Positions 2,520-60,698 of a stretch of 64,000 nt of DNA are shown piece after piece (the stretch's first letter is position 1; each line of letters starts with the position of its first letter). The position numbers and the translations under genes are program-made. The notes below the pieces were generated by a model, which had not been told where the DNA came from, did no database searches, and was given only the letters and a program-made list of their open reading frames with translations. Source of the stretch: Eledone cirrhosa (Eukaryota); assembly GCA_964016885.1 (NCBI GenBank), contig OZ024759.1, forward strand, positions 23,684,001 to 23,748,000. The letters run 5' to 3'.

Positions 2520-2521
<2 letters not shown>

Positions 2522-2656
2522 CGAAGGAAATGTGGTAAGGAACCAGGTGGACCATAACGCACCAAAGTACTCAATACTTGGGGTAGTAGAGTGGGTAATA
2601 GGAACCAGTAAGACCCCGACGGCTGAGCTCAAGCCGTTTCGACGGCTAATTCTGGA

Positions 2657-2658
<2 letters not shown>
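2520..2658 (-). mobile_element. (TA)n-inserted stub, family A (3' half of a hammerhead plus tail)
   Basis: Reverse complement reads agtccagaattagccgtc-GAAA-cggc ttgagctca gcc-GTC-ggggtc...ttccttcgttata. Other copies at 10311, 31053, 31340, 54670 and 56360, with a tail variant at 8058. Confidence 0.8.
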
Positions 2659-2740
<82 letters not shown>

Positions 2741-6721: not shown

Positions 6722-6821
6722 GTATATATATATTTTTTTATTTTTTTTATTTTTTTTTTTATTTTATAGAAGGAGCTTCTACAGGACTAGTACTGTTTCA
6801 TTCAGATGAAATCTTCATATA

Positions 6822-6872
6822 AGCTTCCTGAAGATTTCATCTGAATGAAACAGTACTAGTCCTGTAGAAGCT
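6822..6872 (+). ncRNA. Type I hammerhead ribozyme
   Basis: agcttc-CTGAAGA-t ttca tc tgaa t-GAAA-cag tactagtc ct-GTA-gaagct. Stem I is agcttc/gaagct and the cleavage triplet is GUA. Confidence 0.75.
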
Positions 6873-6959
6873 CCTTCTATAAACTAAAAAAAATTTACTC
6901 TGCCATGTATTGAGTACCTTACTTACTGTGGTTATCCCCGACTCAACCCGGGACCTACG

Positions 6960-7493: not shown

Positions 7494-7591
7494 TTTTCTA
7501 TATTAATTATTTATACTCTGCTTTGTATTGAGTACCTTACTTACTGTGGTTACCCCCGATTGAACCCGGTATAAACTATATTATATATAAA

Positions 7592-7687
<96 letters not shown>

Positions 7688-8166
7688 TATAATATATATA
7701 TATGTGTCGGCCGTCACAAACAGTCATAGCCGGCATGGGCTGGGGTTTGGATTCTGACGATCGATTGGTTATTGATTAGGCGATACTCGCTGATAAAGCC
7801 ACATGCACTGATTATGTATTGTTGCATAATATATGCAGGCAGAGGATGCAGTGCACCCTACTGCTGCATTAGTGCGGCAGAAACTCGAGTCCGGGAACTA
7901 TTATAGGCACCCGTTTTACGTGTGTTGTGTTGAAGCGAATAACTATGTGTATACTCTGGGAATGTATCCTACATTACCTATTGAGTACGCTGAGATACAA
8001 CCGGTCTTGGCATAAATATGCTGGGTCCGTCAACTCCTTATTATATATATATATATATGACTCTTTTCCTATTACCCACTCTACTACCCTTAGTATTGAG
8101 TAACTCTGATGCACTATGGTCCATCTGGTATCTTACCAGACCCTGTTTGTTTTATATATATATATA

Positions 8167-10310: not shown

Positions 10311-10517
10311 AACGAAGGAAATGTGGTAAGGAACCAGATGGACCATAACGCACCAAAGTACTCAATACTTAGGGTAGTAGAGTGGGTAATAGGAACGAGT
10401 AGGACCCCTACGGCTGAGCTCAAGCCGTTTCGACGACTAATTCTGGACTAAAAGTTTAGTCCAGAATTAGCCGTCGAAACGGCTTGAGCTCAGCCGTCGG
10501 GGTCCTACTCGTTCCTA
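10311..10517. mobile_element. Family A fold-back (palindromic) mini-element
   Basis: Long arm 10311-10450, loop aaagtt, short arm 10457-10517, with (TA)n on both sides. Confidence 0.85.
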
Positions 10518-10875
10518 TATATATATATTTATATACAGACAGACACACACAAATATATATATATACTTTTTACTTGTTGGTATTTGTCATTCTTATGTCA
10601 TTCATATAGTATAGCCACAAATATCTGGTCGATATATTCGTTGTGTCACACTTATGTAATTTTATGTTAACTCTGATCGATAGATTTATTAACTTCTCGC
10701 GCCATTGAGTTCTGTATGTTAACCTCACAACTTCAGTTTTGATTTACACTTGATATATTATTGGTAATTAGGTACTGTATAATACTACCCTTTCATATTT
10801 ATAATTATATATAACTCATTTATAATTATAAATCATATTATTAACATATATATATATATATATACATATATATAT

Positions 10876-11002
10876 CAGGGGCGAAGGGTGCGTGCATGCA
10901 ACGCATGCACTGCATGCGTTATAGAATCTTGAGTTGATCAATTGTGTCGGTTGAAGCAAGCAGAATTTTGGGTGCTTGCTAAATCGTAGACACATAAAAA
11001 GA

Positions 11003-11071
<69 letters not shown>

Positions 11072-11210
11072 CACACAAACACTAGATAACACTACATGCA
11101 GCTTTGACCGAGAGGGCCATTTAGATGGAATTGGGGGGGGGGCTGCACGGCCCCACTTTCCGCCGTGGCGATTGGACTGCATGCCCTGCTTTCCAGGTTA
11201 CCCTTCGCCA

Positions 11211-11213
<3 letters not shown>
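10876..11213. mobile_element. Probable hAT-type MITE
   Basis: Imperfect TIRs caggggcgaagggt / acccttcgccatta, inserted in (TA)n, with internal (CA)n. Confidence 0.55.
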
Positions 11214-11266
<53 letters not shown>

Positions 11267-11267
11267 C

Positions 11268-11366
<99 letters not shown>

Positions 11367-11525
11367 AATTAGTAAATTTGTATTCCAATGTTACTAAGTA
11401 GTTGCATTGGATGGAGTCAACCGACGTCAGAGATTGCTCAACGTATAATAAAGTGTGTTTTAAAATCCGGAGAAAATATGGAGAAGAAGTTTATGAAATG
11501 GAAATGCGGGTATACAGAATTTATT

Positions 11526-11642
11526 AGGTAACAATTGTTTCTATAGTGTATGGATTACCTATACCTCGCTATTTGAATAATATAAAAATATTATCATAAA
11601 CCGAAGGTACACTGTAAGCAAACACACCATGTCGTCAGACCT
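11526..11642 (-). ncRNA. Hammerhead ribozyme with long stem II
   Basis: Reverse complement reads aggt-CTGACGA-catggtgtgt...atacactata-GAAA-caatt-GTT-acct, homologous to 43870-43986. Confidence 0.7.
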
Positions 11643-12144
11643 TTGTATTGGAATGATATGAAAATATTTTATACACTAGATAAATTAGCAACCCCTCAGG
11701 GGAGGTCACTCTAATTTTGGCGCACGAAATTATTTGGAAGATATTTGTGTGTTGTGTGACCTATTTTCTCACCGTTGTTATTTTCTGAGAAGGGAAGTAA
11801 GTCTCGCTCAATCAACTGACTCAACAGGGGACGCTAATCATACGAAATTTATCTGTACTAGATATTCATACATCTACGGATATAAATCATTCGACACACT
11901 GTTGAATGCTAGAGTTACTGCGTCTTCAGTCTAGTTGTATATACACAAATCCAGGTAGCACACAATATCTGTGTATCGATCGATCGATCTATAGATCAAT
12001 CAATTTATGCATCTGTCTATCGATCTAGCATCTATCTCACTATTTCAAAAATAAAACATTAAATGAAACAAGAATTGTTCCAAAGAAAACATTTATTCAT
12101 AAAAGCAAAAATATTTAACATTTTTTAAATAAATTTTTTTAAAG

Positions 12145-12606
12145 GGCACTTGATCAAGGCTATTTGATAGAAGAGCTATGTCATCAGCAAAATCTGTATC
12201 ATATATAACAGTTGATGGGTTTCGCTTATTTCTCCTTTGTGTCAATATAAAGCTGTGGTCTTGTTCATTAATTATGGCTTCCCGAGTGGCATAGTCGAGG
12301 GTGATTCTGAATATGGTGCCAATGTGTCACCTCGAAGGACACCATCAAGCTCAAGAACTTCTTCATAAAGTCGAATTCTCTACCAGAAAAATTCGTCTAC
12401 ACATAAATGTTACCAAGACAGAGTACATATTACTAAATCAGGAAGATGCAAATCTTGTCACACTTGATGGTGGAATACCAAATCGAACCTTCATTGATCA
12501 ACTCTCAGTCGATACAGATCTCAGAAGGCATCAGTTGCCAAGAGTAATGGAAAGCTGTGAATTGTGGAGAGACTTTGTCATGAATGTTTTACTGTGGTCA
12601 CATTGA
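12145..12606. pseudogene. RTE-like LINE RT fragment with internal inversion
   Basis: Minus strand 12145-12300 gives LDYATREA..DTDFADDIALLSNSLDQ. The plus strand from ~12340 continues QAQELLHKVE..LHINVTKTEY. Confidence 0.7.
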
Positions 12607-14170
12607 AGATTACTGGGAACCAACTCATGGGAAACGCAGTAGACGAAACCTCGAACCTTCATCGATAAACTCTCAGACAATATAAACCTCAGTAGGGATA
12701 AGTTTGCCAGGAAAAATATAATATATTGGTTGTGTTCCGGCTCTTTACGCTCTGAGTTCAGTTCCCAGGGAGGTTAGCTTTGCTTTTCATCTTTCCAGTC
12801 TCTCTGCATGCTTGGTCCCGTAACTCCCGAGGGAATCGTGACGGCACCGTATTGACATACGGCGTTGCTAGGGCATTTTAAAACCTGGTGGACCCCAATC
12901 CTCTTCAGGTGTAAATACAGCAGATTTCTTCCAGAGAAGGACAAGGAGTGAAAGAATGAAAGTGAGAAAGAGATATAGAAGAACCAATTCCAGTACTTGA
13001 CTGGTGCGTTTCTTATCGAACTTGAATTGATAAAAGGCAAAGTCGAGTTCAGTGGGATTTGAACTCAGAGAGTCGAAACTAGTACCCCAGAACACTCTAT
13101 TTAACGATTCTGCCAATTCGCTCTCTCTAAGGTCTATAAAATAGTATAAAATACCAATCAAGTACTCGGATCGATTAAATAGACTTTCGCCATCCCCACC
13201 ACCCTAAAAATTGTGCTTAAATCAAAATATGAAAATAGAACACGCCCCACACACATGCACGTGTTTTTTTTGTTTTGTTTTTTTATTACCCGTTTGTTGG
13301 TTTGTCTGCGCATGCGCCTGTCTGCCTCTATCGCTGTCTAAAGTCTGTCTTGAGCCCGGATGTCTCATATCCCAGTTTCCATGGCATGAAGCGACTGCGA
13401 GTACAAGACTCCCTCCTCCATTGGTTAACCCCCAAGCTATTGCTGGTACTCATTTTCAGTTGAGTATACCGGAGCCACGTGAAATGAAGTGTTTTGCTCA
13501 ACAACACAACACAGAACCCAGTCCAGGAAGCGAACCCACTACATTATGATCGTAAATCCAACACCCTTACCCCTAGGCCACACACTTCCACTCAATGCCT
13601 GTTTTTTCGGTCTATCTTTTTTCTTCCCTCTTCTCCTCACATATACACAACATACGCATACATAAATGCATCTATGGACCTCCGTCGATTTCGACAATGG
13701 GTGTTCCAGCTGATTGATTAACGGAATAGTCTCCTTATGAATGCAACGAGAAAGTGGCAGAGCATTCCACAGACATATCTACCTTAAAGTAATTCTCAGG
13801 AAGATTCAGTGTTCTTTTTTACTTTTCAAGATGGCTAACTAACAACAATATATGTTTTTGTTAAGCTAGTCTATCTTACCTTTTATCCTTCTTTCTTCCA
13901 AACACTAATTTTTCTCATTTTTATTTTATCTCCCGATGAAAGACTATTGTCCGTAACATCGAATCACGTTTAAGACTGATAGAATTATATCATTAATGTA
14001 CTGTATTTTGCTTTTGTGTTAGATTTCCTTGTTTCTCCATATCGATTATTGAATATATATTATGTTTGTCTATATATATGGTGAACTAACTGATGTGTAA
14101 CCACTTCTACCTAACTCGTTCCATGGACTGAATGCTCTACCACTACAGATATTACCTTCCAGTGTTCTAC

Positions 14171-14214
<44 letters not shown>

Positions 14215-14268
14215 CAGGTTTAGCGGGAATTATGTGTGCACATTAGCAGATGTTATACGGTGATATGT

Positions 14269-14362
<94 letters not shown>

Positions 14363-14752
14363 GTGTATATGTGTGTGTATATATATAGGTGTCTGAGATC
14401 TATATACACTGGTCATAAATACACACATATATATACACATACACTCACATATATATACTCAACAACACCAACAGGGAACCCGTGCTTCGATTTACGCGAA
14501 ATTTCTTTTATTTTTTTTGTATTTCCATTTCAGTGACAACTTCCTTTCAAAGTATTTTCCCATTATGCGCTCGTTTGGTTGTATTACATTACAGAGAAGC
14601 AAGCAAGCAATCACAGACTTTTATTAATATACCAGGGTCATGTTTACTTAAAAATAATTTTTTTAACAATTAAAATATACACAGACATGTATATAATGTG
14701 AAATGAAACTGGAAGACCCAGATATATACGTGTGTGTATGTATATATATAAA

Positions 14753-14805
<53 letters not shown>

Positions 14806-14811
<6 letters not shown>

Positions 14812-15780
14812 AAGTTTGTCCTCATCAGTGGCCTTCCAACCGTCGTAGGCATTTCGTATTAAAGGCCATATACTTCGCATTAAAGGCCATATACCTCAGG
14901 TTGGTGCGAGCAACGGCTAAAAAAAGTCGTTGGGACATGTAAATAAAGGGGACGCTAGGGTAAACAGACAAAATGGTTTAAGCAGCAGAAAGTGATGAAG
15001 AAGAAACAAGTCCCAGATTTCTATGAATATAAATTCGGTGGAATCGTGAACGAGAGAATAAAGACCATCAAACCTGGTTGAAATGTGAGCAAGGAAGGAA
15101 TTTCGCACAGGTCTAACGGGAGGAAGAAGGGGTCTGGTCTGCGAATTCGGTAAACATAAGTTCTGTGAAGTCGCAGACGAGAGAGAGAGAGAAAAAAAAT
15201 CCATACCGGCTTGGCCAAGTGCCCGCGAGGAAAGGATTACGGATAGGTCAAACGGGAAGAAAGGGGAGGAGGAGAGGTAGTGACAGAGAGTGAGTGAGTG
15301 AAAGGTGAGGAACAGGCTAACAGAGAGAGAGAGACTGCTAGAAAGGGTAAAGACACAAAGAACGAAACAGACTGGTGGCAGCGGAGGAAAAAATATATGT
15401 GTAAATATGATAATAATGGAGCTGCGGCGCTGCAAATGGGTTACATATGAAAAAGTTTGTCCTCATCAGTGGCCTTCCAACCGTCGTAGGCATTTCGTCG
15501 CATTAAAGGCAATATACCTCAGGTTGGTGTGAGCAACGGCTAAAAAAAGTCGTTGGGACACGTAAATAAAGGGGACGCTAGGGTAAACAGACAAAATGGT
15601 TTAAGCAGTAGAAAGTGATGAAGAAGAAACAAGTCCCAGATTTCTATGAATATAAATTCGGTGGAATCGTGAACGAGAGAATAAAGACCATCAAACCTGG
15701 TTGAAATGTGAGCAAGGAAGGAATTTCGCACAGGTCTAACGGGAGGAAGAAGGAGTCTGGTCTGCGAATTCGGTAAACAT
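14806..15780. repeat. Direct duplication of a ~340-bp element (14806-15157 and 15446-15780)
   Basis: Near-identical blocks from atgaaaaagtttgtcctcatcag to gcgaattcggtaaacata. The flanking blocks 14370-14630 and 15810-16155 are also diverged duplicates. Confidence 0.8.
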
Positions 15781-16164
15781 ATATATATATATATACATGT
15801 ATGTGTGTGTGTATATATGTATGTGGGCGTCTGTGATCTATATACACTGATGATAGAGACACACACACATGTATATATACACAGACTCACATATATATAT
15901 ATATATACACAACAACACCAGCTCTCTCTCTCTCTCCCCCTCTCTCTCTCTCTCTCTTTAAGAAGGTACCCGGAAAAACCCCATATCTCAGGACCCCGTG
16001 CTCCGAATTACGCGAAACTTGTTTTATTCCATTTGTATTCCTATTTCAGGGTCAACTTCCTTTCAACCTATTTTCCCATTATGCGCCATTTTGGCTGTAT
16101 TACTTTACAGACAAGCAAGCAAGCAAACAACCATAGAGTTTTAGTATTATATAGATAGATAGAT

Positions 16165-18957
16165 ATCTTTCTTTATTTGCCACAGGGGCGTACAAAAATG
16201 GGACATTACAAGACGTGACGGAGGGGGTTTTACATAAAATCTTTAACAATGATAAATAACAATAATCTATATAAAAATAAAACAATTGAATCCCCATTAG
16301 GAGGGGGGGGGGTAAAGCTACTGCGGGGTTGTTTTAAACCCCGTGGATAGAACAACCCTGAACTCCAAGAATACGTGTTGTAGGTGTTCCCGTCTTCCCT
16401 CTGTTTATCTTCCCCAACCTACAGGTTTATATACAGAGAAGGCCCATTCACCCGGGCCATTTTCGCCACATTCACCCACCTTTCAGCGAATTTACTGGGG
16501 TGTAGCACCTCTCTCTCCACTCCCACCTTCCTTCTGAACTGGTGCTTAAAGAAGGGGATGAGTTGTTGTCTGGAGAGAAAGGTGCTTGCCCTCAGTCCTT
16601 TTAACCTCGTCCACCATATTACCTCTTTTGCCATAGCCACCAGACAGAGGAAGACGACCTCTCCTTCATTCTTAAATGAAAGCGGCGGGGGGATCCTCAC
16701 GATGGACTCGGCTGACAACTGGATGCGTCCTAAACGTGACAGTAGCTGTTCGACATAATTCCACAGGTCGGTCACCCCTGGACACTGAACAATTGGGTGC
16801 AGAACGGTTTCGATGCCTTGCTCGCATCTTGGACAGGTCCTTTTGGCAGGATCTCTGCCAGGGCGTCCATGCCTGTAGATTTTGAGCTCGAACTGGTAGA
16901 GCTCCTCGGTAGCACTGCCAGGCCAGAGACCTCTGGAAGTTACCTAGGCCCTGGACGGAAAGTCCTCCCGAACAGACTGGTCAGTTGGTCTTCCTCGATG
17001 CCGAGAGTTTCCTCGAGAACGTCGTCGCTAATCCCCTATAGAATGTCGAAGTAGAGTCTTCGCTGATTGCCGTTTCCGCTTGCTAGAGGGCTGTGTGCGC
17101 CTGAAAGCACTCGAGGTGCCAGGTGCCCATTTTCGGTCTTCGCTTGACCCAGGACTGCAGCTCTGTTAATGAGACGAGTTGTGGAAGAGCTCGTCTCACA
17201 AACGACAGCCACACCGGTTCGCCGGTCAGGAACACCTGGAGATGGCGTAGCCGCAGCGCGTGTTTCCGTATCATCAGCCACGGCATGCTCAGCCCTCTGT
17301 TAGAATGGTGTTGACAGCAGATGGATCTCCTCACCAATGGAGCCTGTTTCTTCCAGAGGAACTTGAAGAGTCGGCGTTCCATTTTGGTGAGGTATTCGCG
17401 GGGACAAGGCACGACTGTCAAGCGGTAGTAGATGACGGACGCTATGTAAGTGTTCGCCACCTCCACTCGACCTTTCAAGGAGAGTTTGCACTCAGCCCAC
17501 TCTGAGTGAGTGCAAACACCTTCGCCGTGACCTCGTTCCAGTTCTTGTCCACCTGGAGGTCTGGACCAAACCAGACCCCGAGCAATTTCACCGGTCCTTC
17601 CGTCCAGCGTCCAACGACATTGCCGGAAGGCATGGGTTTGCCTCTCCATGTGCCGAGTTGCAAACCGACAGACTTGTTTGGGTTTAGTCTTGCTCCTGTC
17701 AATGTTTCGTATTCCTGTAATAGGTTGCCGATTACCCTGATGTCCGAGGTTTTAGACACCATTACGGTTATGTCATCGGCATAGGCCGAGGATGCTTTCC
17801 GAAGTCCTGGTTCGATCGGGATGCCCTCAACAGCTCCAACTTCCGCAGTAATGGCTCGAGAGTTAGTACATACAGAATGGAGGATAGAGGGCACCCCTGA
17901 CGGATGGAACGCATGATTTGGAATGGCTCCGATAGGTAGCCATTCACCTTGACTGCCGAGCAGATGCTGGTGTGCATGGCAGCTATCCAGCCTCTGAAGA
18001 CGGGACCGAAGCCGGCCTTGAGAACCGCTTCCAAGTATTGATGGTCGACCCTATCAAATGCCTTAGACTGATCTAAATTGATCAGAGCCCCACCGAAGCC
18101 AGGCTTACACGCTACCCTCTCTATGATGTATCGCATGAGGTGGAGGTTGTCATGTATGGACCTGGTCGGGATTGCACACATTAGCACGTCCCGTACTAGC
18201 CTCGCTGCTAACACCTTGGCTAAAATCTGTAACTCTGTGTTGAGCAGATTTATGGGCCTGAAATTTCTTATCTCATCCCCTTGTTCTTATCTTTCCTGAT
18301 CAGCGTTACTACGCCTCTTCCTACTGCCAGTTGCAGTAGACCGCTTCGTGGACGCCAGAGAACAAGTCTGGCATGCCTATGTAAAACTGATAGGGTAGAC
18401 TATCTAGACCGGGTGATTTGCGTTTCCCGCAGCGGCTTAGGGCATCTTCTATTTCGCCCGCTGTCATCGGCCTTTCGAAGCTCTCTGCATCCGTGCCCGA
18501 GAGTCGTGGTTCGCCGTCGAGGTAGGAGCTGAAGTCCATCACCCTCCTTAATGCATCCCTTGCCCGAACAGTTGTGCAAAATGCTGCTGGAAGGCCGTGC
18601 ACATCTGCTTCGATTCAAGTAGAATGCGTCCATCTTTGTCTTGCAAGGACCGAATTGTGGATCTGTTGCCACTTTTCGCCTCTCGGGCCCAGCTAACAGC
18701 TTTGGCTCCCTCATTTCTTAGAGAACGTGTTCTACTTCTGACAATACAATCTTCGTGTTTCACGTTGAAGAACTGGTCAGTCCCGTTCTCGCCGCTAGCA
18801 CGTCAGCTGTACTGCCATTCCTAAGTGCCGCTTCTACTTTAGCTACCAGTTCCTTTTCGGTTTTATTCTTTTCTAAAGCTACTTCCTTGCTAAATGCTAT
18901 CGATTCTATTCTAACTGCTCTCTTGAGAGAGCTCCACCACGTGTTGTTGACGATCGT
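16165..18957 (-). mobile_element. Tx1/L1-clade LINE copy 1, 5'-truncated and degraded
   Basis: Frameshifted RT pieces KSPGLD, LINLDQSKAFDRV, SIRQGCPLS, AYADD plus C-terminal domain. The 3' end abuts gatagatagata. Confidence 0.9.
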
Positions 18958-19073
18958 TGTAAAAAAGAATAACCGAAAAGGAACTGGTAGCTAAAGTAGA
19001 AGAGGCACTTAAGAATGGCAGTACAGCTGACGTGAGATAGAAAGATCGATAGATATGTTTCTTTATTAGCCAG

Positions 19074-19122
<49 letters not shown>

Positions 19123-19247
19123 TTCTTTATTAGCCACAGGGGCGCAACAAGAAAAGGGGACAATACAAAGACATATAGATAGATAGATAGATAGATATAT
19201 TTCTTTATTAGCCACAAGGGCGTACAAGAAAAGGATAGATAGATATG

Positions 19248-20223
19248 CTTCTTTTATTTGCCACCAGGGCATCAAAAGTAGGACAAGTACAATGGGGGGA
19301 GTTTACAAAACAAGGCGTCCTCAATAAGGAGGAGGCAATAACAATATATAAAAATAAAATAAAATATAACAAAAAATAAAATTTATAACAAAGTCCTCAA
19401 TAGAGAGGAGGCGCCTTGGGGGGTCGCACACACCCCCGAAAAAAGTGTGCAACCCTTCTCCTCAGGAGCACAGAGAAGGGGTGCTCCCTTGGTCTTTCAT
19501 CTTCCTCACCTATAGTCTGATGTAGAGTGAAGGCCCATTCACACGGGCCATTCTCGCCACTTTCACCCATCTTTCATAGAAACGGCTGGGGTGCAGCACC
19601 TCTCTCTCCATCCTGATCCTTCTTCCGAAATGATATCGGAAGAAACGGACCAGTTGTTGGCCAGAGAGAAAGGTATCTGACCTCAGTCCTTTCAGACGCG
19701 TCCACCATACAACCTCTTTCGCCATGGCTATTACGCACAGAAACACCGCCTCTCCTTCGTTTTTGAAGAGGGGAGGCGGCTTGATCGTTACAGTAGACTC
19801 GGTGGTCAACCGGATCGGTCCCACCCTTGACAGCAGTTGTTCGACATAGCCCCACAGATCGGCAATGCCCGAGCAGTGTACCAATGCGTGTGCAACGGTT
19901 TCCTCGTCGCACACGCATCTGGGACAGATCTTTTTCGATGGGTCCCTACCCGGGCGCCCGTGTCTGTAGAGCCTTTCTCGAACGGGCAGAGCCCTTCTGT
20001 AGCATTGTCAGGCCAGGGACCTCTGGAAGTTGTCCATGGGTCCCGGGCTGAATGTCCTACCGAACAGGTTGGCCAGTTCGTCTTCCTCCATGCCTAGGGC
20101 TTCTCCGAGGGCGTCGTCGCACCTGCTAACCACCAGCCCTCTATAGAATGACGAGGTGGATTCTCCAGACAGCCGGGTCCGCCTGCCAGAGAGCCGTGAG
20201 CGCCTGGGCACACTCGGTGTGCC
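19248..20223 (-). mobile_element. Tx1 LINE copy 2, 5'-truncated
   Basis: C-terminal CxxC..ETVAHALVHC..VVWWTRLKG. (GATA)n on both sides. Confidence 0.9.
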
Positions 20224-20282
<59 letters not shown>

Positions 20283-20515
20283 TTCTTTATTAGCCACAAG
20301 GGCGCAACAAGAAAGGGGACAATACAAAGACATGCCGGGGATTTTACATTCAGTCGTGTAAAAAATATAAAAACAAACAATTTCAACAATCGAAATCCCC
20401 AATAGGGGGGAGGCGCCACAAATGGGTTGTTTAATACCCCGTCGATAGAACAACCCTCAACTCAAGGAGCGTGTTGTGCAAGTGCTCCTTTCTTCCTTTT
20501 GCTCTCTTCCTCAAC

Positions 20516-23500
20516 CTACAGGCTTATAAACATAGAAGGCCCAATCACTCGGGCCATTTTCGCTTCATTCACCCACCTTTCAGTAAATTTACTGGGGTGC
20601 AGTGCCTCTCTCTCCACCCTGATTCTCCTTCTAAAGTGATACTTAAAGAATGGAATCAATTGTTGTCCGGAGAGAAAGGCATCTGTCCTCAGTCCTCTCA
20701 ACCTCGTCCACCATATAACTTCTTTCACCATAGCCACCGTACGGAGGAAAACCGCCTCTCTTTCGTTTTTGAAAGAGTCTGGCGGTTTGATCCTTACTAT
20801 GGACTCGGCAGTCAACTGTATTTGTCCCATACGCGACAGCAGTTGTTCTGCATAGTTCCACAGGTCGCTTACGCCCGGGCAGTGTACAATTGCGTGCAGA
20901 ACTGTTTCAATGTCCTGCGCACATCTTGGACACGTCCTCTTGGAAGGATCCCTGCCAGGGCGTCCGTGCCTGTAGATCTTGTCACGAACCGGTAGAGCTC
21001 CTCGGTAGCACTGCCAGGCCAGGGACCTCTGGAAGTTGTCCATAGGTCCCGGGCGGAAAGTCCTACCAAACATACTGGTGAGCTCATCGTCTTTGACGCC
21101 CAGAGTCTCTCCGAGCACGTCGTCGCCCTTGTAACGTACAATCCCTCTATAGAATGTCGAAGTGGAGTCTCCACTGATTGCTGCGCCCGCTTGCCAGAGG
21201 ACTGTGAGCGCCTGAGCGCATTCAATGTGCCAGGCGCCCATCGTTTTCGGTCTTTTCTTCACCCAGGACTGCAGCTCCGTTAGCGAGACGAGCTGTGGGA
21301 AAGCCTGTCTCACAAACGGTGCCCACACCGGTTGGGGGTCGGTGAGGAATACCTGGAGATGCCGCAGCCTCAGCGCATGTTTGCGCATCATCAGCCACGG
21401 CATTCCCAGCCCTCACCAGCGGAGCCTGCTTCTTCCACAGAAACTGGAAGAGCATGCGTTCCATATTGGCGAGGTGTTCACGGGGACAAGGCACGACAGT
21501 CAAGCGGTAGTAGATGACGGACGCTATGAAAGTGTTCGCCACCTCCGCTCGACCTTTCAAGGACAGTTTGCACTCTGCCCACTTCTGAGTGAGTGCAAAC
21601 ACCTTGGCCGTGACCTCGTTCCAGTTTTTCTCCACCTGGAGGTCTGGACCGAACCAGACCCCGAGCAATTTCACCGGTCCGTCCGTCCAGCGTCCAACGA
21701 CGCTGTCGGATGTCATCGGTTTGCCTCTCCACGTACCGAGTTGCAAACCGACAGACTTGTCTGGGTTTAGTTTTGCTCCCGTCAGCGTTTCGTATTCTTT
21801 CAGTATGTTGCCGATCACCCCGATTTCCGAGGTGCTCGACACCATTACTGTTACGTCGTCGGCATAAGCCGACGCCGCTTTGCGCAGTCCCGGTTCTAGG
21901 GGGATGCCCTGCAACAGCTCCAATTTCCGCAGTAGTGGCTCTAGAGTCAATACATACAGAATGGAGGAGAGAGGGCATCCCTGTCGAATGGAACGCGTGA
22001 TTGCGAACGGCTCCGATAGGTAGCCGTTCACCTTGACCCTCGAGCAGATGCTGGTGTGCATCGCCTCGATCCATCCTCTGAACACGGGACCGAAACCGGC
22101 CGCCTTGAGAACCGCTTCCAAGTATCGATGGTCGACCCTATCGAATGCCTTAGACTGATCCAAGTTGATCAGAGCCCCACCGAAGCCGGGTTTACTACCC
22201 ACCCTCTCTATGATGTATCGCATGAGGTGGAGGTTGTCGTGTATGGACCTGGTCGGGATTGCACACGTTTGCGCTTTCCCTGCCAGGTTCTCGACGACAA
22301 GCGCCAACCTCGTCGCTAGCACCTTGGCCAAAATCTTTAACTCTGTGTTGAGCAGAGTTATGGGCCTGAAGTTGTTAATTTCGTCCCCCTTGTTCTCGTC
22401 TTTCCTGATCAGCGTTACTACGCCCTTGCCTGCAGAACTGGGAATTCTCCCGTTCTGCTGCCAATTGCAGTAGACGGCTTCGAAGACGCCAGAGAACAAG
22501 TCCGGCATGCCTATGTAAAATTCGTAGGGTAGACCATCTAGACCGGGTGACTTGCGTTTCCCGCAGCGGCCCAGAGCGTCCCGTATCTCAGTGTCCGTGA
22601 TCGGTCTTTCGCAGAACTCGGCGTCCGTGTTCGAGAGACGCGGCAGGCCGTCGAGGTATGAACTAAAGTCCATTGCCCCGTTCGGCTCACCGTCGTTCTG
22701 CTCAAACAGTCGCGCAAAGTGCCGCTGAAAGGCCGCGCACATTTGCTTGGGGTCAAGTAGCACGCGTCCTTTTTGGTCTTTCAAAGACCGAATCGTGGAC
22801 TTGTTGCCACTTTTTGCCTCCGCCACTCGGGCCCAGCTGACAGCTTTCGCTCCTTCGTTTCCTAGAGCACGTGTTTTGCTTCTGACCACGCAGCCTTCGT
22901 GTTTCGCTCGACGCTAACACTCTAGCCGCGTTGCCACTTCTAAGTGCCTCCTCTACCTTGGCTACTAGTTCTCTTTCTATTCTGTTTTTCTCTAAGGCTA
23001 ACTCTCTGCTATACCCTATCGATTCTATTCTAATTGCTTTCTTGAGAGAGTACCACCATCTATTGTTGACGATGGCTCCCGTTAACTGTTGCTTGACTAG
23101 TTTACTTATCCGTTCACTGTAAGCTTTACGTGCCGGCAACGACATGTTCAGCTTCCAGTATCCAGGACCCTGTCTATGTATTCTATCACGGTTGACTAAG
23201 CAGACGACTAACTTGTGATCTGAATAGGCAACCATGTGCATTCGTGGACAGCTTAACATATCCTTGTCCCTTTCTCTAATGAAGAACCTATCTAAATACG
23301 ATCTAGATGTCCCACTGCGGTTTACCCACGTCCACTGTGGTGCAGTCGGGAAATCCAGTCGATACCTATCGGCCAGTTGGAATTGGCCGATTAAAGTTTT
23401 GAGGCTGTTGCACCCCGCTCTACTGGGACATGCTCCCACATAGTCCCATCGTGCATCTAGGATACCATTCCAGTCCCCCACTAAAAGTAAGGAGCGAGAC

Positions 23501-23901
23501 GTTCCCAGAAAAGACTCTAGACGCTTAAAGAAGTCTGGCCGTGATTGCGATTGCCCGGTCGGGGCATAAACGGCCACCAGTCTGAAGGCTCCACCTCCGA
23601 TACTGTTCACGTCTAGGACTACCAGTCTACCCTCCGGGTCCAAGTGTACTTGCTGTACTCCGACGTCCAGGTTCTTCCGAAACATAACAGCCACTCCACC
23701 TCCACCTCCTGGCTGACAGAGAGATGCGTAGATCTCAAAGTCGTCGAAGATGGGGGTTAGTTGCTGCCTGTTGTGGATTCTGGACTCGGTAATGGCTATC
23801 ACATCCATACTGTGTGACCTAAGGTCGTTTAAAAGTTGGCCCTGTTTCCAGGGCATCCCTAGGCCACGCACATTCACGGTTCCAACTCGTAAACCAGCCA
23901 T
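20516..23901 (-). pseudogene. Tx1 ORF2: APE endonuclease, RT and C-terminal CCHC domain, with two frameshifts
   Basis: APE motifs TVNVRGL, ITES, VYAP, GDWN, SYLDRF, SDH (22753..23901). RT motifs KSPGLDG, FRPITLLN, DQSKAFDRV, QGCPLS, YADD (21222..22889). CPRC..ETVLHAIVHC (20516..21403). Confidence 0.92.
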
Positions 23902-24533
23902 GTTGGTGAAGAAAAGTTGGAGAAAAAGGACGAAAGGTGCACTTACCTTTTCGTTTCCTGGAGATGGGGTTGTTCAATCTCCATTTGGGTGCTGGATGGG
24001 GTGTTGGGTGGGGTGGGGAAACCTTTCAACAGGACGCGGTTGATGGGTTTGTGGCAGGGGTTGCCCACGTCCTGTGAAAATTTAATTTTCAGGTCTTTAT
24101 AGGTTTCCATAGAAACCCTTATAAGTTTAAGGTGTGGAGACGATTCTGCCTTGACGAAAGTTTTGCCCTCCGTCTCCACCTTGGGGTTTTGGGAGATGAC
24201 CTCCATCAAACTCTTGTTGTTTGTGTTGATGTATGCGTATTGTTGTTTGTGTTTTTGTTGTATTGTTTTAGTTTGTTGTTCATCTGGGAGTTTTCTTTTT
24301 ATGGTGGGTGCTTGTGTTTGGGGTGGTGTTGGTGCTGGTTTTGCTGATAGGGGGTGTTTGACTGTGGTGTTGTTTGTGTTGTTGTTTGTGTCTGTGGTTG
24401 TGTGTTGGTGTTGGTGATTTGAGTTTTGGGGGTTTTGTGGTGTCTCTTTTTTTGTTTTTTGGATTTCCGCGGTTCTCCCTCTTCTTCACTTAAAGAAGGA
24501 GAAGCAGCTTCATCCGTCGATGAATAATCATCG

Positions 24534-25862
24534 TCAGGTGTGTGGGGTAAGGGTATGTTGTGTGGTGGTGGTGGTGTTTCGGTATGTGTGTTTGTGGTAG
24601 TGTTTGATGGAGTGGGATGGAGTGGGGATGTGTTCTTCAGGGGTGTTGTCTCTGTTTTTTCTGTTGTTGTTGGTTGAGTGTCTGTTTGTTTTGGTGTGGT
24701 TGTTCGTTTCGTCTGTCGTTGTACTTGTGGTGGTGGTGGTGGTTGTTTTGGTGTTGGTGTTGGTAATAGCGTTTTTTTTTATGATGTTGCTGTTGTGTGT
24801 TTGTGGACAAGAGGCTTTTAGGTGAGATGTGCTACCACAGCGAAAGCAGTGAAATTTTCTTCCTTCTACCGAAATGTTTATTTTGTTGTTATTATCAATA
24901 ACGACTCTTTCGGGTATTTTGGAGATTCTCTCCGTTTTCATTTGCAACAGAATCTCCAAATCGGTGCCCGCCCACCTTTGTCGAATGGATTTTCGTATCG
25001 AAAGTATTATGTCTGTTTCTGGCTCTACGAAGCCAGCCAAGATCCACCAGATGTTAATGCTTGGAGGTATGTTTTTTATTTTTATTTTTTGTGTCCTTTT
25101 CCCCATGTATGTAGGGAAAAAGGTGTATGCTTTTGACACTATTGGTGTCACAGAGTTTTTTGGGGCCAGTGCCTCGCTTTTAAACAGTACGGAAACACTT
25201 CCGTACTGTTTTCCTCGCTGGAGAAAATCGACATTTCCTAGAATCTCCTTGAAAGAATCTTCTATATCTGACTGATTAACAAATGTCGGTTTTCTTGACG
25301 AATTTGACACAGTCCTAAAAGTGACTGATCGGCGGTTTGTGTCTTCCTTTATTTCAAGGGGTGAGTTAATTCTAAACCCACCTCTTTCTTCGAAAGTTAC
25401 AAATTTTCTCCCTTGCTGGAGCATATCTCTTGCGTTGGAGATATCAAGATTTATAAAATCTTGTTTCTTGTTGACTGTGTCAGCAAAAGACATTTTCTTT
25501 TTTTGTGTGATGTTGTTGTTAATAATGATGTTATCGTTGTTGGAAATTTTATGTGTAGATGTATCTGTAGAGTTGTTGATGTCTTTTTCATGTGTATGTA
25601 TGTCAATGGGTTTTTTTGCCGTGTTTTCCCGTGTGTTATTGTCATTTTTCTCCGCTTTGGCGGTAGAAATTGTAACATTTTCAAATGTTGATATATTTTT
25701 TTCTTTTGTGACAGTATCTATGGCAACGTCCATAGCAGCAGAAGCAGATATAACGTTAATGTCTGCCTCTTTCTCTCTCTTTTCACTATTAACGTTCTCC
25801 AGCGTTCTAGTGTTGCTCAAGTTTTTTTTACTTTGTAAAATTTGATATTTTAAGACAAACAT
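24534..25862 (-). CDS. Tx1 ORF1 nucleic-acid-binding protein with zinc knuckle
   Basis: 442-aa ORF upstream of ORF2 with CFRCGSTSHLKASC (CX2CX4HX4C). A low-complexity tail probably continues, frameshifted, to ~23943. Confidence 0.8.
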   Translation of the reverse strand: MFVLKYQILQSKKNLSNTRTLENVNSEKREKEADINVISASAAMDVAIDTVTKEKNISTFENVTISTAKAEKNDNNTRENTAKKPIDIHTHEKDINNSTDTSTHKISNNDNIIINNNITQKKKMSFADTVNKKQDFINLDISNARDMLQQGRKFVTFEERGGFRINSPLEIKEDTNRRSVTFRTVSNSSRKPTFVNQSDIEDSFKEILGNVDFLQRGKQYGSVSVLFKSEALAPKNSVTPIVSKAYTFFPTYMGKRTQKIKIKNIPPSINIWWILAGFVEPETDIILSIRKSIRQRWAGTDLEILLQMKTERISKIPERVVIDNNNKINISVEGRKFHCFRCGSTSHLKASCPQTHNSNIIKKNAITNTNTKTTTTTTTSTTTDETNNHTKTNRHSTNNNRKNRDNTPEEHIPTPSHSIKHYHKHTYRNTTTTTQHTLTPHT

Positions 25863-26030
25863 TTAAATAAAATTTTCGCCCCTACAGGGGCGAAAAATGG
25901 GATTACCACCCAGCTGACAATTCAGCTTGGGGGTTAATCTACAAAGTGTTGTATTTTTTTCAAATAATTAGATCGGTTTTTTGCATAGAAATTAACAAAA
26001 AACTTACCGGCGATATTCCACACGTTAGAC

Positions 26031-26116
<86 letters not shown>

Positions 26117-26117
<1 letters not shown>

Positions 26118-27100
26118 CAAGGGCACAAAAGAAGGGGACAAATACAAATGGGGAGTTTACATACAGGTATATGAAAATAAGACTATTAATAAAATAACAA
26201 ATAACAATTGAAATCCCCAATAGGGGGGGGGGTCGTTATACAGGGGTTGTACACACCCCGAAAAAATGTGCAACCCTCATCTCCAGGAGCACCAAGAGTG
26301 GGTACTCCCTTCCTCTCTTCCTCTTTTTCCTCAACCTACAGGCTTATATAGAGAGAAAGCCCAACCACTCGGGCCATCTTTGCCACATTCACCCACCTTT
26401 TATAAAATTTGCTGGGGTACAGCACCTCTCTCTCCATCCTGATTCTTCTTCCAAAATGATATTTGAAAAAACGAATCAGTTGTTCGCCGGAGAGAAAGGT
26501 GTCTGACCTCAGCCCTTTTAACCTTGTCCACCATATAACTTCTTTCACCATAGCCCTAACACATAGGAAAACCGCCTCTCCCTCGTTTTTGAAGGAGGGT
26601 GGTGGTTTGATCATGACAATGGACTCGGTGGTCAACTGGATTGGTCCCAGCCGCGACAATAGTCGTTTTACATAGCCCCACAGGTCGGTAACGCCCGGGT
26701 AGTGTACAAATGCGTGCGCAGCGGTTTCCTCGTCGCGCACGCATCTCGGACATATCTTTTTCGAAGGGTCCCTGCTCGGGCGCCCGTGTCTGAAGAGTTT
26801 GTCTCGAACTGGTAGAGCTCCTCGGTAGCACTGCCAGGCCAGGGACTTTTGGAAGTTGTCCATCGGTCCCGGGCGGAAGGTCCTACCGAACAAACTGGCC
26901 AGTTCGTCTTCCTCCATGCCTAGGGCTTCTCCGAGGGCGTCGTCGCACCTGCTAACCACCAGCCCTCTATAGAATGACGAGGTGGATTCTCCACTGACAG
27001 CCGGGTCCGCCTGTCAGAAAGCCGTGAGCGCCTGGGCACACTCGGTGTGCCAGGCGCCCAGTTTTCTCAGTCTTTGCTTGACCCAGGATTGCAGCTCGGT
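26117..27100 (-). mobile_element. Tx1 LINE copy 4, 5'-truncated
   Basis: ORF 26336..26959 is paralogous to copies 2 and 3. (GATA)n at both ends, including 27101-27128. Confidence 0.9.
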
Positions 27101-27616
27101 GATAGATAGATAAATAGATAGATAGATATGCAAACACATATTGCGTATTGTTATGGTTGATTGCTCTAGCGTAAATTTAAATGTTCTATTTTGATCATAA
27201 CTTTGCCTTTCATCCTTACGGGGCCGATAAAATAAAGTACCAGTAATACACTGGAATAATTGCTGGCCTTGGGCCAAAAGTAGAAATAATTATTTAATGC
27301 ACTGGGATAATTGCTGGCCTTGTGCCAAAACTAGAAACAATTATTTTTCAAATCACTGGAGCTTGTTATTTATATCGTATTAAAAAAATGTTTCATTTTG
27401 TTTTAAATAATAAATAAATGTTGCCTCCCATTTTCTTTTGTTCGTCGTTTGTCAAGCGAAGGAAGTGCAAATTCTCCACCATGCTTCATAATTTCTAACT
27501 TATTTTTACACACAACTGAAGCATACCGATGACTATGTGACCACTTAGTGACTCAGGCCTACAGCGGGTGATTGAGGCTTGATGAAATATAAAAAGAAAG
27601 GTAATTAGATAGATTA

Positions 27617-27617
27617 T

Positions 27618-27654
<37 letters not shown>

Positions 27655-27695
27655 GGATGGATGGATGGATGGACGGACGGACGGACGGACGGACG

Positions 27696-27757
<62 letters not shown>

Positions 27758-27840
27758 AGAAGAAGAAGAAGAAGAAGAAGAAGAAGAAGAAGAAGAAGAA
27801 GAAGAAGAAGAAGAAGAAGAAGAAGAAGAAGAAGAAGAAG
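27617..27840. repeat. Compound microsatellite (GATA)(GGAT)(GGAC)(AGAC)(GAA)
   Basis: Direct reading. Confidence 0.95.
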
Positions 27841-27873
27841 GGGGAATAAAAGGAGGAGGAAGAAGAGTTATGT

Positions 27874-27910
<37 letters not shown>

Positions 27911-28194
27911 GAAAAATTGAACAGGGACAGAACAGAGAGGCAGTACGACCAATGTTTATATATATATATATATATCCCAAGTATGAAATTGATCTGAGTC
28001 ATAATTGTATTTCCGTGTTCACCTTGTTTTTATTATTGACGTCTTTATATATATACCTCACTTCAGCTTTACACAGAGACAGACCAGGGAAGATCAACAG
28101 CTGAAAATTATATTTGGAATATCTTTCATCCGAGTGGTAAGAAAAACAAAAATTATTTTAAAGTTCTTTTATTTTTTTCACCATTATGCTTACA

Positions 28195-28258
<64 letters not shown>

Positions 28259-28264
28259 GATATT

Positions 28265-28304
<40 letters not shown>

Positions 28305-28532
28305 GATATTAATAATATATATATATATATATATATATAAGAGGGTGTTAAAGTTTGCTTGAAGCATTGTGAAATGTGTAAAATACGTATTTAAGAAAGC
28401 CACAACAATGCAGAGGGAAATCTCGAGGTAGGAAGTGAAAGATAGATAGGAAAAACAGGTGAAAGTGAAAATTGAGAGAGACAAAGATGAAAACAAAACA
28501 AAGGTAGAAGGGTTACCGTAGTAGAGATTTAA

Positions 28533-28568
28533 TCCCAATATTTCGGGCTCACGCCCATCAACGGGGGA
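28533..28568 (-). ncRNA. Minimal hammerhead motif with degenerate core
   Basis: Reverse complement reads tccc-CCGTTGA-t gggc gtga gccc-GAAA-t-ATT-ggga. Two core changes from CUGAUGA. Confidence 0.5.
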
Positions 28569-28774
28569 AAGTTTCAAAAGGGGGGGAACAGGCCAAGCGG
28601 AGAAAGTTGTGATGTCGTTAAGACAGGAATGCCGTTATGGGGAGAAAATTAAAATTATTTAAAAATTTGAACGAGGGAAAGAATGCGCGTGCGCGTGATA
28701 GGCTGTGGCAAAAGCTACTGACCAAATGGGTTAAATCAAGAGGGTGCGCTAGCGTGTGAAAGCCGTAAGATATG

Positions 28775-29630
28775 TGTGTGTAAATATATATGTGTGTGTA
28801 ACTGTGTGTGTATAAGTGTAAGTGTGTATATGTGTGAGTGTGTGTGTGTGTGTGAAAGATAGTGGGCTGTAGAAGCTGGAAATCAAAGGGTGTGAAAGGT
28901 GGTAGGTTGTAAAACATGTGTGCGTGTATAAATATAGATGTGTGTGTGTAAGCGTATGGGTATACATGTGTGTGTAACTGTGTGTGTATATGTGTGAGTG
29001 CGTTTGTGTGTGAAAGATAGTGGGCTGTAGAAGCTGGAAATCAAAGGGTGTGAAAGGTGGTAGGTTGTAAAAACATGTGTGCGTGTATAAATATAGATGT
29101 GTGTGTGTATGCGTATGGGTATACATGTGTGTGTAACTGTGTGTGTATATGTGTGAGTGCGTTTGTGTGTGAAAGATAGTGGGCTGTAGAAGCTGGAAAT
29201 CAAAGGGTGTGAAAGGTGGTAGGTTGTAAAAACATGTGTGCGTGTATAAATATAGATGTGTGTGTGTATGCGTATGGGTATACATGTGTGTGTAACTGTG
29301 TGTGTATATGTGTGAGTGCGTTTGTGTGTGAAAGATAGTGGGCTGTAGAAGCTGGAAATCAAAGGGTGTGAAAGGTGGTAGGTTGTAAAACATGTGTGCG
29401 TGTATAAATATAGATGTGTGTGTGTAAGCGTATGGGTATACATGTGTGTGTAACTGTGTGTGTATATGTGTGAGTGCGTTTGTGTGTGAAAGATAGTGGG
29501 CTGTAGAAGCTGGAAATCAAAGGGTGTGAAAGGTGGTAGGTTGTAAAAACATGTGTGCGTGTATAAATATAGATGTGTGTGTGTATGCGTATGGGTATGC
29601 ATATACGTGCGTGTGTGTGAAGATAGCAGG
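28775..29630. repeat. 158/159-bp tandem repeat, about 5.4 units
   Basis: gaaagatagtgggctgtagaagctggaaatc starts at 28854, 29012, 29171, 29330 and 29488. Confidence 0.92.
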
Positions 29631-31052
29631 CCGTAGGCTGTGAATGGTCACTATGGTTAAGTTAGCCATGTCAGCTCATTTCTCTCAGCCCGGTTGTTAG
29701 TGGGGGTCTGAGGTTCTTAATAACAAGTGCTTCCTTTATCCTTAAGGATCCGATGCTGCGTTCAGTCGCTAGGACTGTGACCAAGGGTCTACCCTGTGGG
29801 TTTCCGCATTTAAGGATGTGTTTACGGAAGGAAGATGCGTTGGTGTTGATATGTTCCTTGATACGAACATGTAGGGGTCGGATGGTGCTACCTATGTAAA
29901 ACTTGTTACATTTATCGCATTGAATCTTATATACGACATAGGTGCGTAGGCAATCTGCCCCCCGTATCGGGCAGTTGCTGAGGGAACACGTCCCATCTGA
30001 CTCGTCGGGTTTGTTGGAGAGGCATCTTCGCAGCGAAGGTCCTGTGTGGGCCAAATGTATGTCAAGTCCCTCCGTCCGTATGGCCCTGCGGATGGCGTTC
30101 GTGGTATATTCACTCAGGTGGGGGATTTTAAAGAAGCACCTGCTATTATTTAATTTTCTAGTGGGTGTCTGTCTATTGGGTCTGGGGTCTCTAATTTTGT
30201 TAATCAGTCGCTTGGGATAACCATTAGATCTGAGTAGATTACGGAATTGCGTGGTATGGGTGAGACCACCCATCGGGTCGCTGCATCTGTTAGTGATCCG
30301 TGTCAGTTCATTTAGGACATAGCCTCTCTTAGCGTTGTTGGGGAGGGCTGAGTTATAATGCACAAATAAGTCCTATATATATATATATATATACGATATT
30401 AATAATATATATATATATATATATAACTATATATTTAGAAACACACAGATACATGCGGACACACACATATACATGAATGCATCCGCACCCAACCGTGAAT
30501 TAAGGGTGCCAACTTCACCGATGTTGCTCAATGAATGACTGGGACAGACCAATCCGGTTGAACTAGACTGAACCAGTATCAGAGTTAAAAATACATTATG
30601 AAGAGAGAAGAAACATTTAGATATAATTAGTAATAAAATGTATCATACCTAAACTGCTCCTAGATTCCTCGACTACGTAGTTTCGTGGCATAAACAAAAA
30701 CAATACATCATAAAGATATAGAGTCCTTGCGAGGTCTGCCGACTTATCAAGAGGATACCTCATTTTACTAGTCTCAAGAACGCGTCTACACGGCGTGAGA
30801 AAGAATCCCAAAAGGCGGAGGGGGAGATAGTCACGCGATATAACGGTCGAGAAACAGAGCTAAGCCTCCTATAACCCCGAAGAAAATACCACGGAGGCGG
30901 AGGGGGTATTTATATCGAAGCCGTAGAAGAGGTGGTGAAGGAGAAGAGAAGTATGAGTAATGGAAGCTTTCCAGCAGTCCCCACACCTCAAAGATTGCTC
31001 GACCAGAGGGAGTTATTAACAATATATTTAGAAACACATATATATATATATA

Positions 31053-31243
31053 TAGGAACCAGTAAGACCCCGACGGCTGAGCTCAAGCCGTTTCGACGGC
31101 TAATTCTGGACTGAATTAGCCGTCGAAACGGCTTGAGCTCAGCCGTCGGGGTCTTACTGGTTCCTATTACCCACTCTACTACCCCAAGTATTGAGTACTT
31201 TGGTGCGTTATGGTCCACCTGGTTCCTTACCACATTTCCTTCG

Positions 31244-31291
<48 letters not shown>

Positions 31292-31297
31292 GATATT

Positions 31298-31342
<45 letters not shown>

Positions 31343-31542
31343 AACCAGTAAGACCCCGACGGCTGAGCTCAAGCCGTTTCGACGGCTAATTTCGACGGCT
31401 AATTCGGTCCAGAATTAGCCGTCGAAACGGCTTGAGCTCAGCCGTCGGGGTCTTACTGGTTCCTATTACCCACTCTACTACCCCAAGTATTGAGTACTTT
31501 GGTGCGTTATGGTCCACCTGGTTCCTTACCACATTTCCTTCG

Positions 31543-31544
<2 letters not shown>
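31053..31544. mobile_element. Two family A fold-back mini-elements (31053-31244 and 31340-31544)
   Basis: Each is a short inverted arm plus a long arm. The central junctions differ and the two are separated by (TA)n. Confidence 0.85.
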
Positions 31545-31581: not shown

Positions 31582-31588
31582 CGATATT

Positions 31589-31632
<44 letters not shown>

Positions 31633-54541: not shown

Positions 54542-54750
54542 TATATATCATACTCTACTTCTGTATTCGGCTTATTTTCCCCCTTGTTTCAAAATCCAAG
54601 CGTACACACACACATATGCATACAAATATATATTATCTATAGATGTATATATTATTTATATATATATATCGGAAAAGAGTCAGGACCCCAACGGCTGAGT
54701 TCCGGCCGTTTCGACAGCTAGATCCGAACATATATATATATATACATATT

Positions 54751-56213: not shown

Positions 56214-56834
56214 GATATTCGAAAATGTGTGAAAACTTTGGTGCAGTTAGGCATATTTAAAAAAAGGAAAAGAATGATTTTACTTGTAGTTCTAAATAAT
56301 TTCTAAACAAGAACTACAAATGACGTCATTCTTTACCCTTTTATATATATAGAGAGAGAGAATTAGCCGTCGAAACGGCTTGAGCTCAGCTGTCGGGGTC
56401 TTACTGGTTCCTATATATATAGAGAGAGAGATACATCGACACATATATTGGTTTACGAAGCTAGTCTAAGAGAATCGCTACAACTTCGTCTGTGTACTGT
56501 GTACACAGACGTCGTTTGGTTTGTTATTTATGTTTAAATTTACAGACACACATGCATACATATTTGTTGAACTAACTTTATACCGGGATGTTATATCCGT
56601 AGTAAGTAGAGCACTCAGTCCATAAGAAGAGTTCGGTTTAAAGTTAGTTCAACAAATATATATATATTATATATATATATATATATTTGTTGAACTAACT
56701 TTATACCGAATATATATATATATATGTATATATATGTATATATATATGGAAAAGATAGACAGAACTCTCATCTAATATAGACCACACAAATTCTAGTACA
56801 GTGATAAATACTTCATCGGTCAGATAGAAGAGCT

Positions 56835-60565
<3,731 letters not shown>

Positions 60566-60698
60566 TAGATAAATCTACCAAGAGTTTACGGTAGTGTCCA
60601 ATCCGTATGAAGAACTCAATGTATTCCGGATATCATGGAAAGAAGAGATGTAATGAAAAATCACTTTCGGTGAAAGATAAACGGAATACAGAGTCAAG

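Follow-up and report, generated by a model that had tools for sequence, protein, structure and literature searches.

Family A hairpins in the window

The stretch of 64,000 nucleotides analysed here, referred to as the window (Eledone cirrhosa, assembly GCA_964016885.1, contig OZ024759.1, positions 23,684,001 to 23,748,000 of the forward strand), harbors hairpins and solo arms of a short fold-back element, family A. These hairpins, about 190 bases long and present in thousands of copies in the genome, are the shortest insertions of a Penelope-like element (PLE). Each consists of a long and a short arm joined head to head. Positions within the element are numbered from the A of AGTCC in the parent element (+1).

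10312..10452, minus strand: long arm, +138 to −3 of the PLE leader (sequence read; parent numbering)
10453..10454: two non-element bases at the hairpin centre (sequence read)
10455..10515, plus strand: short arm, −3 to +58, with +1 at 10458 (sequence read)
31055..31112, minus strand: short arm, +58 to +1 (sequence read)
31113..31244, plus strand: long arm, +7 to +138, without +1 to +6, which are present in the partner short arm
31341..31391, minus strand: short arm, +58 to +8 (sequence read)
31392..31406: centre, with antisense +20 to +7 re-copied plus one extra G
31407..31543, plus strand: long arm, +2 to +138 (sequence read)
2521..2659, minus strand: solo long arm, +138 to +1, flanked by (TA)n tracts; an additional G precedes +1
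56360..56411, plus strand: solo short arm, +7 to +58 (sequence read)

As described in the initial annotation, the outer ends of the arms are fixed. Long arms end with TTCCTTCGT followed by TATA (10312, 31244 and 31543, and also the solo arm at 2521, which is additional to the copies listed before), short arms with GTTCC followed by TATA (10515, 31055, 31341 and 56411). The three centres differ and are located 12–21 nt 5' of GAAA, and the 5' half of the hammerhead core is absent from every window copy, both as annotated. The haplotype CCTACTCG is common to the short arm 10455..10515 and its long arm. The variant cgagtagg is indeed shared by both arms of this copy but is not private to it, since it represents a common subfamily haplotype (24/79 long arms). 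That the centres stem from independent events holds family-wide, with 56 junction types in 79 hairpins, but is uncertain for one pair in the window: the copies at 31055 and 31341 may reflect a single event plus local duplication, because they differ nowhere but in the centre and lie next to a duplicated CGATATTAATAA. This motif flanks the 31341 hairpin on either side (31291–31302 and 31583–31594), which would reflect duplication of the target or, alternatively, a tandem duplication of local extent.

In the 3.0-Gb assembly, which is rich in (TA)n, copies were counted as exact pattern matches, since the words are too common for a similarity search. The core 34-mer is matched 18,369 times, the tail 29-mer 25,637 times, the hairpin-centre pattern 7,777 times per strand and the read-through form 3,844 times, with no match to any of the reversed controls. 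When the 10311 copy was compared with three contig sets of one sample, no piece among the matches listed spanned the whole stretch. An Rfam search of the window gave, among the 150 of 231 matches listed, only hairpin hits below threshold and no hammerhead.

Parent element and hammerhead ribozyme

The parent of family A has a unit length of 3,533–3,542 nt and one open reading frame (ORF) of 724 amino acids, intact in locus L106. The ORF displays the motifs RWR at position 37 (R for K), DKT at 117, YRDD at 348, CNCPDGSIC at 572 (CxCx5C), VIY..YIG at 591 (GIY-YIG-type), CNLC at 670 (CxxC) and CKH at 698 (CxH); GxK[FY] was not found in it. By motif match, this corresponds to the single ORF of endonuclease-positive PLEs, which combines reverse transcriptase and GIY-YIG endonuclease. 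Moreover, partial tandems forming pseudo-long terminal repeats (pLTRs), an inverted 5'-truncated copy and a tail at one end, likewise typical of these elements, are found at L105–L107, L109, L165, L180 and other loci. In the Hydra clade (Craig et al. 2021, PMC8557442, used here in excerpt like the other publications cited), which includes Hydra-1_Obim from an octopus, the same features recur: a C-terminal endonuclease, RW[K/R], DKT, the CxCx5C linker, CxxC and CxH around conserved E and N, absence of GxKF/Y, a (TA)n target, a hammerhead, the inverted 5'-truncated copy and the one-end tail. In contrast to Hydra-clade elements, which are generally below 3 kb (a tendency rather than a strict criterion) and have tails of 30–40 nt, the unit described here measures 3.5 kb with a tail of 80 nt, and most copies are hairpins of about 190 nt. 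For Hydra-1_Obim, the listed hammerhead has another sequence, with CUGAAGA as its core. A Pfam search with the parent ORF retrieved 0 families and a PDB search 0 hits; the clade assignment is therefore based on the motifs, which characterize the parent as a putative Hydra-like PLE.

The pLTR comprises, in this order, ACCCC (stem I), the core UUGA(G/U)AA, the 5' strand of stem II, TATTTAAA at −29, and +1, followed by the 3' strand of stem II (+11 to +18), GAAA, a 6-bp stem III with a palindromic loop and GUC/GGGG at +41/+42. Further landmarks of the leader are the short end at +58, the long end at +138 and the ATG at +232. Thus, a PLE with the missing hammerhead half upstream, as anticipated in the initial annotation, was found, but the literal prediction gaccc(c)-CUGANGA was incorrect: the parent reads ACCCC-UUGANAA, a compensatory U3:A8 core. 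In the window, the following parts are represented:

31117..31152, plus strand: 3' half of a type I hammerhead, with stem II 3' strand, GAAA, stem III with palindromic loop and stem I 3' strand (by-eye comparison with the parent)
between 31147 and 31148, plus strand: predicted ribozyme cut GUC/GGGG within this half
31165..31244, plus strand: 80-nt 'tail' between the two priming sites, containing GUAU-UGA-GUAC, also present in a second family, B

Read by eye, the parent has all features of a type I hammerhead (core positions 3–9, GAAA, UH triplet and stems I–III). Among 135 read-through arms, U4, G5, A6, A8, A9 and G10.1 are kept in 131–134, while at core position 3, 107 arms have U and 25 have C; the latter, with C3 opposite A8, are possibly inactive ribozymes. 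Stem II of the parent contains a bulge, and the active hammerhead fold was not obtained by minimum free energy folding of the parent. A U3:A8 core has been described for Schistosoma PLEs (Cervera and de la Pena 2014, PMC4209133). Those ribozymes share with the present one the U3–A8 covariation, a short helix I, a long helix II, the palindromic loop 3 and motif pairs on opposite strands; the present ribozyme differs in its 6-bp helix III and in a predicted transcription start inside loop II, which splits it.

Some loci have unusual joints. Short tandem or chimeric units (257–358 nt, or a +960/+42 joint) were observed at L064, L208, L052 and L108; in L064 and L208 the joint is identical in the two arms, which would suit copying from a small circular or a ligated RNA. 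At L054, L184 and L199, template jumps left joints that include a short A run; two independent ones land at +504, where a premature poly(A) site may lie.

Two fixed arm ends in strict long+short pairing

Arm ends were tabulated for the first 100 listed 34-mer matches, all on one contig (C1), with ends near mismatches classed by eye. The short site accounts for 47 ends and the long site for 51, one arm ends 12 nt early and one runs into the ORF. With 98 of 100 arms at two sites, this sample confirms the fixed endpoints described for the window. A microhomology to (TA)n had been noted at the short end. It is present (TATTACC at +58) but not special to this end, because the parent long end reads TTCGT followed by TATCTAG at +138, so that TAT follows both sites.

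The two sites are strictly paired. In 79 hairpins, 77 combine a long with a short arm, two contain an arm running into the ORF, and neither long+long nor short+short was found; the 77/77 resolvable cases correspond to p of about 1e-23 against a 50:50 expectation. Among 38 long loci, classified by eye, 29 are long+short, one is short+short and eight could not be classified. The two ends of the longer insertions are identical to those of the hairpins, and the insertions differ only in the reach of each copy.

A miniature inverted-repeat transposable element (MITE) or other DNA transposon was rejected on account of the unequal ends, the variable centres and a parent that is a reverse transcriptase element. 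An animal non-LTR retrozyme was rejected too, since the hairpins contain the hammerhead 3' half only and are not tandem monomers.

GTATTGAGTA is found in the tails of families A and B (window 6907–6916, 7525–7534, 8093–8102 and 31188–31197). With its potential to fold into a triloop hairpin (GUAU-UGA-GUAC), it is a candidate site for protein binding between the two starts.

Probable double synthesis on a shared template

The initial annotation had left two routes to the inverted arms, priming of both target ends on the same RNA species or fold-back of the cDNA. In the second route, a single cDNA started at +138 would fold back, copy itself to the first TAT (+59) and join the second target end. 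This would account for the strict pairing and the shared variants, +59 is the first TAT encountered from +1, and the long arm is the further-reaching one in 40 of the 79 hairpins (equal in 10). However, the short arm reaches further 5' in the remaining 29, and in 29 long insertions it is the longer arm in 17, often by kilobases (long arm in 10, equal in 2). A short arm with sequence missing from the long arm argues for two primings rather than fold-back, and L298, L308 and L318, whose two arms do not overlap at all, largely refute self-priming; loop flipping fails for these three as well, because there is no overlap. Fold-back is therefore regarded as improbable.

Six diagnostic sites match between the arms in 69/79 hairpins, compared with a mean of 13.7 after shuffling, and a chimeric junction is common to both arms in L064 and L208. 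The simplest reading of these sequences would be that both arms derive from one RNA molecule. Together, strict pairing, shared haplotypes and shared chimeric junctions make it likely that both target ends used the same RNA species, as had been suggested.

Most hairpins might instead be second-generation copies of a few hairpin RNAs, spreading like short interspersed elements or MITEs from a single primer. Such spread could explain recurring junctions (the commonest in 6/79) and the possible duplication of the 31055/31341 pair, but it hardly agrees with 56 junction types in 79 hairpins, with a commonest junction on four haplotypes and in both orientations, or with long insertions that have the same two ends, and we give it little credence.

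The 5' limit near +1

Among 100 long arms selected by their tails, 57 stop at −4 to +7, 35 at +8 to +83, none at −5 to −29 and 8 beyond −30. The stop of family A arms is situated within the 37-nt loop II, 29 nt below the TATA-like box TATTTAAA, and not at the foot of a stem. An independent test of this position is provided by family B (2,802 exact 29-mer matches), the arms of which contain a complete CUGAAGA hammerhead. One copy lies in the window:

6769..6959 (ends approximate), plus strand: family B hairpin, long+short layout as in family A

In 30 family B arms, comprising 15 hairpins, one solo arm and six read-through copies, 15/15 hairpins reach −1 to +2 of AGCTTCC, 29 nt below TATAAATA and 5' of the whole ribozyme. 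Run-off at the predicted 5' end of the transcript fits the arm stops best.

In the initial annotation, synthesis was thought to stall at ribozyme stem II. A version of this, with two primings and a stall at stem II or another RNA structure instead of the template end, gains from the family A centres, which fall between the two strands of stem II, and from the 35/100 long arms that stop earlier at scattered positions. However, the arms pass the stem II 3' strand (+11 to +18) and stop about 10 nt beyond it, in the loop, with no stops at −5 to −29; family B hairpins include the whole stem II and core; and the same point is passed by 23/23 long ORF-bearing copies. A stall is thus unlikely. A retrovirus-like strong-stop model, in which each cDNA independently jumps from +1 to the RNA 3' end, was also lowered in rank, since no arm stopping at about +1 had a read-through partner (100 arms, by eye) and the long copies have no scar at +1.

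Copies ending at the predicted ribozyme cut and longer insertions

A rarer class of about 320–600 hairpins is centred on the predicted ribozyme cut. The pattern for such centres has 321 matches; among 50 listed, both arms end at +42 with inserted bases in 26, 22 are compatible with slippage and two are ambiguous. A looser pattern, which under-samples longer arms, has 597 matches (control 20), and among 50 listed, by eye, the further arm reaches +42 in 26, including eight readable as +41. The class emerges only if both arms must stop there; the 100 arms selected by tail show no visible enrichment (three at +41 to +43). An arm beginning at +41/+42 was observed at 5/60 ORF-start loci. For the cut-centred class, a possible alternative is a stall 1–2 nt away, at the stem III foot.

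Of the copies that contain 1.5 kb or more of the element and extend to the upstream +1, all read past it (23/23, by eye), whereas seven short jump-type loci stop there. Changes in the length of the G run at the cut were found in 5/135 read-through arms versus 0/227 others (p 0.007, with arms that are not all independent). The cut-centred hairpins, the read-through of +1 and the G-run changes point to a second, cut or circular template, and read-through multimers are possible as well. For more-than-unit copies, a circular template has been proposed (PMC4209133).

Perfect palindromes are unstable and difficult to assemble. The hairpins might consequently be artefacts of assembly or remnants of long palindromes later deleted to a stable size, and slippage on repeats of 2–3 nt can explain 22/50 centres near +42. 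Neither process would be expected to yield unequal arms, untemplated bases and a sharp +1 limit in two families, and the stop point of the hairpins is shared by solo arms and template-jump junctions; this explanation appears very improbable.

Proposed mechanism

Family A hairpins probably represent minimal PLE insertions that arise by two-ended priming at +138 and +58, run-off at the predicted capped 5' end and head-to-head joining. The observations underlying this proposal are the parent, the two fixed ends with TAT at both, the strict pairing, and the sharp +1 limit with a TATA-like box at −29 in two families. Both strands of a (TA)n tract would be nicked, and target ends ...ATA-3' would pair with UAU in the element RNA, so that one end primes reverse transcription at +138 and the other at +58. 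If +1 is the transcription start, both copies would run off the predicted capped RNA 5' end and could then be linked by end-joining that involves nibbling and brief re-copying, short microhomologies and untemplated bases. For longer insertions, the template likely had no end at +1, being either a read-through multimer or an RNA that was cut by the ribozyme and then circularised or jumped.

Several points weigh against this mechanism. Every tabulated sample of hairpins or arms was taken from the start of one contig. The predicted start site at +1 rests on TATA/Inr-like spacing, judged by the TATA/Inr consensus, and on stop positions of DNA copies. An extra G before +1/+2, found at 13/64 ends abutting (TA)n (by eye) versus 2/135 read-through arms, would be compatible with copying of a cap, but this signal is weak, because G is the commonest interrupter of (TA)n runs (53% of non-A) and an extra G also occurs in the uncapped +42 class (about 6/50). 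L174 is a short+short insertion. Target duplications, at 3/77 versus 0.4 in shuffled data, are not definable. Shared haplotypes could also be produced by inter-arm repair or one dominant donor locus, and 3/79 hairpins differ between their arms at two sites. Self-priming has been proposed for inverted-junction palindromes (PMC3846280). Finally, priming by Poseidon of Anolis (PAc) in vitro is reported to be non-homologous (Frangieh et al. 2024, PMC11167929), in contrast to the UAU at both sites here.

As a more tentative extension, the ribozyme may act as a switch between abortive and productive insertion, in which case the genome would record the whole PLE cycle; we hold this to be possible but rather doubtful. 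Uncut capped leaders would give dead-end two-primer hairpins, the majority. Since the predicted transcription start splits the hammerhead, a leader would be unable to cut alone, and cleavage of the RNA at +42 would be assisted by the 5' half located at the transcript's other end. The products of cut RNA would be cut-centred hairpins or, after RNA circularisation or a jump from end to end, partial tandems of full length in which the TATA box is restored. The 321–597 cut-centred hairpins, the long copies that all pass +1 and the G-run changes at the cut would be in keeping with such a cycle.

Comparison with known systems

The hairpin layout as such is already known, because inverted arms, a one-sided tail and two internal starts have been published: inverted copies with a tail at one end are described in PMC8557442 and PMC3846280, and the PAc protein cuts and extends both strands of AT-rich DNA from two internal starts that bracket the tail, with uncleaved RNA as the main template, a further likeness (PMC11167929). 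In contrast to the present insertions, each of which uses one of each site, the excerpts report no strand bias of start sites for PAc, and no RNA ends at the ribozyme cut, whereas some of the present copies form a class that terminates at the predicted cut.

Twin priming of LINE-1 likewise involves two primings per target and head-to-head joining of cDNAs by microhomology (PMC10760644). Family A differs in that the start points are internal and do not vary, the two copies mostly span one shared stretch of RNA, and such structures are the norm instead of a by-product.

In the literature searched, which did not extend to the supplements of PMC11167929, PMC4209133 and PMC3846280 or of bioRxiv preprint 10.64898/2026.07.22.740005 that may bear on novelty, strict one-of-each pairing, the UAU match, promoter run-off and cut-site footprints were not found; excerpts of the preprint do not contain the terms 'tail', 'cleavage site' or 'transcription start'. 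The origin of PLE inverted repeats with a one-sided tail and the role of the hammerhead are stated as open in excerpts of PMC8557442, PMC4209133 and PMC11167929. Here, thousands of natural insertions give sharp, testable numbers, namely one long and one short start each, UAU at both, a transcription start that can be predicted, and copies that stop at the ribozyme's predicted cut, a point for which in vivo evidence had been lacking. The intact L106 ORF and the leader of about 140 nt provide material for a direct in vitro test.

Other features of the window

Diverged relatives of family A, with about 86% identity, are located in (TA)n at 8059–8145 and about 54670–54730. Two further fold-back elements lie at about 54000–54240 and at 18808–19026; the former, whose longer arm ends in (TA)n, possibly represents a third family of this layout. 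Other CUGANGA..GAAA motifs resembling minimal hammerheads were noted at 3996, 4031, 7449 and 44504 on the plus strand and at 7119 on the minus strand. The minus strand at about 8600–8960 resembles what we take to be a Helitron Rep/helicase fragment, and a long AT-rich tandem array with strong GC skew extends from 56830 to 60580.

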